A DNA stretch of 64,000 bases, from assembly GCA_963779735.1 (NCBI GenBank), contig CAVZZJ010000009.1, positions 189,622 through 253,621 on the forward strand, given 5' to 3'. The notes beneath the pieces were generated by a model. The model was given only the letters and a program-made list of their open reading frames with translations. It searched no databases and was not told the origin of the DNA. The stretch is from an uncultured Acidimicrobiaceae bacterium. GTDB taxonomy: Bacteria; Actinomycetota; Acidimicrobiia; Acidimicrobiales; RAAP-2. Positions 58,338 to 59,458 of the stretch are shown here, one piece after another (position 1 is the stretch's first letter; each line of letters begins with the position of its first letter). A program made the position numbers and the translations under genes.

Positions 58338-59458
58338 TTAGGGTCGCCGTAGACGCGGCGGCGGCCGACGTTTCCGACCGGGCGCAGTGGCATGTGGATC
58401 GCACGATCCCCACTCGGCAGGCTCACGTCTCTCAACAACCCGGCCATCCCCCCCCCCCCCCCCCCCCCCCCCCCCCCCCCCCCCCCCCCCCCCCCCTCCC
58501 CCCCCCCCCCCGCCCCCCCCGGCCTCCGAATCGCTGGCGGGCGCCGTCGACCCGTTGGCGGCCGCCACCGATCCGTTCGACCCGATCGCGTGGTTGGCCT
58601 GCTCGCTCGATACGGCCCCCTGCAGCCCGTTCACCAGACCGCCCAGCAGGTCCATCGGTACGACGATCTTCGTCGACGGCGACGTGCCGACCTGCTTGAG
58701 CGTCTCGAGGTACTGCAGCTGCATGGTGTTGCGATCGAGACCCTGCCCGACGACGAAGATCTTCTCGAGCCCCGCGGCCAGCCCCTCGGCCCGGAGGATG
58801 GCCGACTGGCGCTCCCCTTCGGCGCCGAGGATGGCCGCCTGCTTGGTGCCCTCGGCGAGGGTGATGGCCGCCTGCTTCTGACCCTCGGCCTCGGTGATCG
58901 CCGCCCGCCGGGTGCGCTCGGCCGACATCTGGCGGGTCATGGCATCGAGGACGCCGGTGGGCGGGTTCACCTCGCGGACCTCCACGGTGGTCACCTTGAC
59001 GCCCCAGCGCTCGGTCACCTCGTCGAGGCGGATGCGCAGCGATGCGTTCATGTCCTCGCGCTTGGACAGCACGTCGTCGAGCAGCATGTCGCCCGACGAC
59101 GCTGCGCAGCGTGGTGGCGGCCACGTTCTGCGCAGCGGCGGCGAAGTTCTGCACCTGCAGGACGGACATGGAGGGGTCGACGACCTTGTAGAAGATGATG
59201 AAGTCGATGGAGATGGACGCGTTGTCCTTGGTGATGGCCGTCTGGTGGGGGATCTCCAGAAAGCGCTCGCGCAGATCGACCCACGACGGTCCGATCGGTG
59301 ACCGGGTTGATCAGCACGAGGCCGGGGCCCCTGAGCCCCACGGCCCGGCCGAGCCGGAACAGGACGATGCGCTGGTACTCCCGCACGATCCGGACGGAGA
59401 AACCGCACGCCAGTATCAGGAGGAAGACCACAATGCCGGCCACCACCTCGAAGATCAT
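58338..59458 (-). pseudogene. stomatin-like SPFH protein, disrupted by two apparent +1 frameshifts; 3' end runs through a poly(G) tract
   Basis: The conserved sequence is split over three frames. They read MIFEVVAGIV..REYQRIVLFRLGR..INPVTDR, then VDLRERFLEIPHQTAITKDNASISIDFIIFYKVVDPSMSVLQVQNFAAAAQNVAATTLRSVVG, then DMLLDDVLSKRE...QYLETLKQVG. The shifts fall at ~59280-59282 and ~59092-59094. The start overlaps the NfeD stop. Confidence 0.7.
58448..58520. repeat. near-pure poly(C) homopolymer tract (49 C, T, 14 C, G, 8 C)
   Basis: Read directly from the sequence: 71 of 73 nt are C. On the minus strand it reads as GGG codons (poly-Gly) at the 3' end of the stomatin-like ORF. Confidence 0.95.

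Follow-up and report, generated by a model that had tools for sequence, protein, structure and literature searches.

Phase-variable homopolymeric tracts of bacteria include the poly-G/C tracts of Neisseria, Haemophilus and Campylobacter, the C-stretch of the Bordetella fim promoter and the 7C tract of Mycobacterium tuberculosis glpK. Such contingency tracts are approximately 6 to 20 nt long, occur in promoters or 5′ coding regions, vary in length across strains and are placed to switch expression. Long runs of G are also well established as a product of sequencing itself, in the form of the poly-G tails generated by two-colour chemistry. We know of no 49-nt homopolymer from a bacterial chromosome. 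The tract analyzed here lies in a 64-kb stretch of DNA (hereafter the window) from a lineage of Acidimicrobiales/Acidimicrobiaceae that is represented solely by MAGs from soil, peat and sediment. It resembles the phase-variable tracts in being a homopolymeric G/C run in or beside a coding sequence, but differs from them in its size (runs of 49, 14 and 8 nt), in its absence from all other strains and species examined and in its location on a stop-codon position. Comparison of the locus with related assemblies indicates that the tract is very probably a sequencing or assembly artefact at a mis-join and not a part of the genome of the organism.

The tract occupies 73 nt on the plus strand of the window (58448–58520) and reads C49-T-C14-G-C8, exactly the composition and position given in an earlier note on this DNA. 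It contains 71 C, one T and one G, and Tandem Repeats Finder describes it as 73 copies of a period of 1. The window has a G+C content of 67.3% (34% C) and its longest homopolymer elsewhere is 8 nt. Given that no other run exceeds 8 nt and that only ~1e-18 C runs of at least 49 nt are expected in 64 kb, by simple arithmetic from the window composition, the tract is not a product of chance. On the minus strand it sits at the 3′ end of a Band_7/SPFH (stomatin-like) gene, in whose C-terminal frame it encodes 24 consecutive Gly codons, in agreement with the approximately 24 GGG codons counted earlier, followed by 35 codons up to a stop at 58338. The resulting false read-through ORF (58338–59408, minus strand) holds the 24-Gly run. 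The reference Band_7 protein (315 aa, PF01145) ends in ...STAPAASDSEAG immediately before its stop, and the tract starts at the position of this stop codon, after residue 314 of 315. The poly-Gly tail thus arises by read-through, the Band_7 TGA stop having been lost to the tract. Both interruptions of the tract fall at third codon positions (GGA and GGC). Selection for poly-Gly, considered on this basis, was dropped because the arrangement is a 1-in-9 coincidence without meaning. The parts of the locus, from left to right, are as follows.

57886–58323, plus strand: intact glyoxalase/VOC-family gene (145 aa), with an identical protein carrying PF00903 on nine independent contigs and DNA 99.2–100% identical to L001–L009 up to 58365.
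58324–58364: genuine intergenic sequence downstream of the glyoxalase gene, the last exact match to the reference contigs.
58365–58447, plus strand: degraded internal fragment (83 nt) of an SDR (adh_short) gene, aligned to L001 3368–3462.
58448–58520: poly-C filler in place of approximately 1.5 kb that comprises the remainder of the SDR gene, AP_endonuc_2 in its entirety, a C-rich spacer of 83 nt and the Band_7 TGA stop.
58521–59461, minus strand: broken Band_7/SPFH (stomatin-like) gene, with its stop overwritten by the tract, three bases (CGG) deleted at 58536 and one base inserted at each of 59091 and 59286.
59458–59958, minus strand: NfeD gene (166 aa), the intact operon partner of Band_7, with an identical protein carrying PF01957 on seven independent contigs.
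60010–63034, minus strand: indel-rich right flank, with single-base indels relative to both L001 and L002.
60774: indel at the 3′ end of the PdxS gene, yielding a false PdxS-PdxT fusion ORF at 60010–61551.
61784, 62068 and 62556: indels in an M48-peptidase-like gene that is intact in the reference contigs.
63034: indel in a histone-deacetylase-family gene that is intact in the reference contigs.

To establish the true structure of the locus, we relied on assemblies of the same population. Look-up of the exact glyoxalase protein (57886–58323) retrieved nine independent contigs, drawn from metagenome or MAG assemblies at NCBI and from Logan assemblies of SRA runs, and look-up of the exact NfeD protein (59458–59958) retrieved seven contigs, one of which comes from a further sample. 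The contigs that span or approach the site are the following.

L001/L096, GCA_052915745.1: spans the site.
L002/L097, GCA_052143475.1: spans the site.
L003/L098, GCA_052915825.1: spans the site.
L095, GCA_052915885.1: NfeD-anchored, crosses the site from the right.
L004, GCA_052915905.1: extends into Band_7.
Contig of GCA_052915845.1: extends into AP_endonuc_2.
Logan runs SRR34864990 and SRR31840464: two short contigs that confirm the left junction.

The population is represented only in NCBI and Logan assemblies, and neither the window form nor the reference form of the right-hand junction was found when JGI metagenome contigs were scanned. Every site-spanning contig displays the same gene order: DUF1684, glyoxalase, SDR/adh_short (295 aa) and AP_endonuc_2 (259 aa, a xylose-isomerase-like TIM barrel) point rightward, followed by the leftward genes Band_7 (315 aa), NfeD (166 aa), PdxT, PdxS, M48-like peptidase and histone-deacetylase family. 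Identity between these contigs and the window is very high on both sides of the tract, at 99.2–100% over 55231–58365 and about 99.3–99.5% over 58509–64000. Two contigs, L006 and L008, are 100% identical to the window over 1182 and 744 nt, respectively, with both matches ending exactly at window position 58365, beyond which they run on into an intact SDR gene. The SDR and AP_endonuc_2 genes are absent from the window. The missing segment (L001 3131–4965, 1835 bp) is present at 99.1–99.8% identity in L002–L005 and in part in L006 and L008. None of the independent assemblies contains the tract. Six contigs carry the missing segment in full or for the most part, another two confirm the junction on the left, and one, anchored by NfeD, crosses the site coming from the right. 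The earlier note had favoured a data-quality explanation in which the two flanks might not be real neighbours, and the contigs bear it out, as approximately 1.8 kb and two intact genes stand between these flanks in all independent site-spanning assemblies. Because no independent assembly reproduces the tract, this interpretation is supported. Comparison with relatives, which the same note had proposed as a check, likewise finds the tract absent from all same-population contigs and from the closest other species.

Base-by-base alignment reveals a composite defect. The glyoxalase gene is the last trustworthy gene on its left, and window positions 58301–58364 correspond to L001 3066–3129 with 0 mismatches. 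At 58365, the window sequence skips 238 bp cleanly and lands inside the SDR gene. The 83 nt that follow (58365–58447) align to L001 3368–3462 with 80 matches, 3 mismatches and 12 deleted bases in 8 events, with 0 insertions, which amounts to 84% identity, against 99.7–100% in flanks located only tens of bases away. This error profile is deletion-only and resembles that of a raw read. Neutral pseudogene decay of the degraded stretch was ruled out, given 16% local divergence and deletions beside 100% identical flanks; such local divergence next to the tract is incompatible with neutral decay in a near-identical strain. The tract comes next. Overall, 1835 bp of reference sequence (L001 3131–4965) are reduced to 143 window bases, made up of the 238-bp skip, the 83 SDR bases and most of the tract, and the Band_7 stop is lost as well, since the remainder of the tract replaces the final 10 spacer nucleotides together with the stop codon. 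At this right-hand edge the reference reads ...CCTCCCTCAGCCGGCCTCCGAATCGCTGGCGGCGGGCGCC, and the window restarts at CCGGCCTCCGAATCGCTGGCGG-GCGCC with a further CGG deletion. In the reference contigs, the 83-nt spacer ahead of the Band_7 stop is of mixed sequence, 55% C on the plus strand, without a long C run. As the window retains an SDR fragment, its template must have carried the SDR/AP_endonuc_2 cassette. A search of the whole window for translocated SDR and AP_endonuc_2 genes found only paralogues of 30–36% identity, and when window sequence 58366–58447 was sought on both strands of the reference contigs and of the rest of the window, it matched only collinear positions within the SDR gene.

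The organization of a more distant relative bears on whether the window could depict a real strain. The closest other species, L015 (MFD00731.bin.1.11), is about 89% identical at the nucleotide level. Its Band_7 protein ends in ...GANDSGAG and a stop, followed by a 58-nt spacer and then the convergent glyoxalase gene. When L015 5998–7462 is compared with L001 2651–5923, the cassette of approximately 1.8 kb lies between glyoxalase and Band_7 in the latter; at the orthologous site L015 has no C run and no SDR/AP_endonuc_2 cassette, and its 58-nt spacer is unrelated to the reference spacer. Since it is missing from L015, the pair of SDR and AP_endonuc_2 genes is a lineage-specific insertion. It could be argued that the tract is genuine: the cassette would really have been deleted, a long stretch of C would have closed the break, for instance through untemplated addition in end-joining repair, and Band_7 would now end in a hypermutable slipped-strand tract. 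The variability of the cassette within the lineage is compatible with this scenario, as are the Gly reading frame preserved across the interruptions and a right flank that represents a distinct real haplotype, which makes a strain-specific structure conceivable. We nevertheless consider it extremely unlikely. No independent contig that spans the site or reaches it from either side has the tract; two separate skips and, within 95 nt that adjoin perfectly conserved sequence, 8 deletion events are unlike a single deletion or neutral decay; and the frameshifts of the same flank affect the PdxS, Band_7, peptidase and deacetylase genes, all of them intact in 99.5% identical relatives, which indicates error rather than biology. 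If it were genuine, the tract would be the longest homopolymer known in a bacterial chromosome, the stomatin-like protein would have a 24-Gly tail, and a double-strand break that lost the cassette would have been repaired with roughly 70 nt of untemplated C/G filler.

Two functional roles proposed earlier for the tract meet the same difficulty. A contingency locus would be present with length variation in other strains; this tract is absent from the same-population contigs and from L015. It would also occupy a promoter or a 5′ coding position; this tract sits at the Band_7 stop codon. The suggestion of a hypermutable slipped-strand tract is accordingly not supported, as no relative examined has it. 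A functional G-quadruplex on the minus strand, or an i-motif on the plus strand, serving as a terminator or regulator downstream of Band_7, appears vanishingly improbable. A G run of such length could in principle fold into a G-quadruplex, and the real spacer downstream of Band_7 is indeed G-rich on the coding strand (55% C on plus). Either structure nonetheless requires a real tract in the first place, and this one is found neither in the same population nor in the sister species L015. Furthermore, it lies within the read-through ORF and not past a stop codon. Conservation at the orthologous position is not observed either, the references having no long C run and L015 an unrelated 58-nt spacer, so that the structural element put forward in the earlier note is without a counterpart in every relative examined.

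An artefact at a mis-join is, by contrast, consistent with an abrupt change in sequence quality at this very position. We scored as window-unique any difference seen against every reference covering the position, using 18 reference loci. Left of the tract (42.3–58.36 kb, 15.2 kb), there are 4 window-unique substitutions, 1 intergenic indel and 0 frameshifts; the remaining indels on this side are either multiples of 3 in tandem repeats or peculiar to one reference. The 5.5 kb to the right contain 11 window-unique substitutions and, by the strict criterion, at least 4 single-base indels. When the window is compared directly with L001 and L002, 7 frameshifting 1-nt indels are found on this side (59091, 59286, 60774, 61784, 62068, 62556 and 63034), comprising 6 insertions and 1 deletion, only 2 of the 7 in homopolymers. 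The dense frameshifts reported earlier to the right of the tract are thus confirmed, two as the 1-nt insertions in Band_7 (59091 and 59286) and five as single-base indels extending to 63034. Altogether, window-unique differences are roughly ten-fold denser right of the tract than left of it. The unique substitutions of the right flank (58521–64000) are nevertheless biased toward codon position 3 (9 of 11) and are mostly synonymous (7 of 11), which identifies them as real SNPs of another haplotype. These patterns indicate that the contig changes haplotype at the tract and is a strain chimera, with a left side that is well polished and identical in haplotype to the short-read assemblies, and a right side of another haplotype with uncorrected indels. 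The site thus combines the 84% identity stretch, the ten-fold step in difference density and the apparent haplotype switch.

The right-flank errors have direct consequences for gene calls. The apparent PdxS-PdxT fusion ORF (60010–61551, minus strand; 513 aa) results from a window-unique 1-nt insertion and a substitution at 60773–60774, and in the references PdxS (307 aa) and PdxT (195–207 aa) are separate genes. The M48-peptidase-like protein has 364 aa in L001 and was called with 273 aa and PF01435 in L095. In the N-terminal region of this protein, a hexanucleotide repeat (GTTCCG, 8.7 copies, 62570–62621) encodes an (Asn-Arg)n run.

Which technical process would have generated the tract is a separate question. 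The earlier note had pointed to poly-G reads from Illumina two-colour chemistry, which can bridge or terminate contigs; on this view, dark-cycle reads from such instruments (NextSeq/NovaSeq) would have created a spurious de Bruijn path joining two nearby contig ends. There is a resemblance: on the minus strand the tract is a poly-G run 3′ of real Band_7 sequence, and, as in poly-G tails, it is shorter than one read (73 nt) and includes sporadic non-G calls. Dark-cycle tails reach the end of the read, however, and would account for the Band_7-side junction but not for the return to real, collinear, same-strand sequence 1.5 kb upstream; here both sides of the tract are real sequence from one locus and one strand, whereas a tail would have only one real junction. 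A poly-G hub would also be expected to link unrelated contigs rather than two points 1.8 kb apart in one locus and orientation. The error types are equally at odds with this mechanism. Illumina errors are substitutions, and the damage consists of 12 deleted bases and 0 insertions in the adjoining 83 nt (95 reference nt), together with the 7 single-base indels of the right flank, which are signatures of noisy long reads. Finally, the source contig belongs to the 0.2–1 Mb class, much longer than the short-read contigs of the population, which do not exceed 34 kb. A literature search on poly-G artefacts in contigs yielded no work that bears on assembly joins. Illumina poly-G bridging is thus probably not the cause, and we regard it as very unlikely.

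The length of the source contig is as expected for a long-read soil metagenome assembly. The short-read contigs break at the paralogous Peripla_BP_6 genes, through which the source contig runs. These genes are tandem solute-binding paralogues (53745–54989 and 55266–56603, minus strand) with approximately 86% nucleotide identity, and most short-read contigs of the population that reach the duplication end inside it. Between the two paralogues lies a tandem repeat of 15 nt in 5.1 copies (55103–55179), the copy number of which differs from that in L010.

An artefact at a mis-join would most likely have arisen when a single noisy long read with poor base calls, or a consensus that failed over such a read, was used to link two stretches of differing support. 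The left side would derive from a well-covered haplotype and the right side from a rarer one in which indels were left uncorrected, and the bridging read itself would have escaped correction by polishing. In its most Nanopore-like version, this scenario would involve a slip or stall during which the template passed largely unread; such an event would be expected to leave damage made up of deletions only and then skips that span hundreds to thousands of bases. A possible origin of the C call is the C-rich template before the Band_7 stop (55% C on the plus strand). We know of no documented base-caller behaviour that specifically emits poly-C, and this step is a conjecture. Two observations argue against an artefact. 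The right-flank indels are mostly insertions and few are in homopolymers, which is not the classic Nanopore consensus error profile, and the glyoxalase/Band_7 adjacency seen in L015 suggests that a strain without the cassette would not be absurd.

A second case of this kind emerged from the relatives. Among 94 related loci (L001–L094), no homopolymer of at least 12 nt was found except for a block in L060 (MFD01716.bin.2.94, contig_18536). This block (4416–5241) consists of C11-A214, a 27-nt island and A70-T498, is located just upstream of NfeD/Band_7 and takes the place of 1507 nt that are intact in the 93–95% identical L067 (3773–5279). The MFD MAGs were produced from Nanopore reads only, by Flye assembly and a single round of Medaka polishing (PMC12313526). 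L060 and the window have in common an overlong homopolymer in a long contig of a soil Acidimicrobiales MAG, each hiding approximately 1.5 kb that is intact in close relatives, and a block situated no more than about 1 kb from an NfeD/Band_7 pair. They differ in base composition, the L060 block being made of A/T runs (214, 70 and 498 nt) with a C11 lead-in and the window tract of C. The giant homopolymer filler of L060, a documented long-read MAG of the same order, is of the same artefact class as the window tract.

The window displays several further features of its own. Positions 28000–42000 have a G+C content of 58–63%, versus 66–72% elsewhere, and carry an aromatic/homogentisate catabolic gene set with an HPPD-like dioxygenase, HgmA_N, fumarylacetoacetase, three Amidohydro_2 genes, a P450, a Peripla_BP_6 gene and a methyltransferase. 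This low-GC block may be an acquired island. In or beside a second Band_7 paralogue, an in-frame tandem repeat (46113–46160; 9 nt, 5.3 copies) varies in copy number relative to same-population contigs, and a perfect in-frame repeat of 21 nt in 2.4 copies (50621–50670) lies in a gene for an RDD-domain protein, the length of which is 223 or 230 aa depending on the reference. Copy-number variation at these two sites is genuine strain-level repeat polymorphism. A C-rich imperfect repeat of 7–8 nt (CCCCCTCA, about 8 copies) is found at 42318–42381, with small indels relative to L011 at 42349 and 42374. ARAGORN called an 89-nt tRNA-Ile (GAT) at 9327–9415 (plus strand), overlapping the high-GC3 ORFs 8987–9358 (plus strand) and 9088–9732 (minus strand); from its length and position, it is plausible that this call is a false positive.

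For the use of this record, neither the poly-Gly tail of the stomatin-like protein, nor the seeming absence of SDR and AP_endonuc_2, nor the apparent fusion of PdxS with PdxT should be taken as a feature in annotation or data mining, and the window to the right of 58.5 kb is best treated as unpolished. A screening rule for long-read MAGs can be drawn from this case: a homopolymer far beyond the run-length distribution of the genome, at a step in indel density, marks a mis-join that hides kilobases. We therefore see the value of the tract as practical and regard it as being without significance for the biology of the organism.
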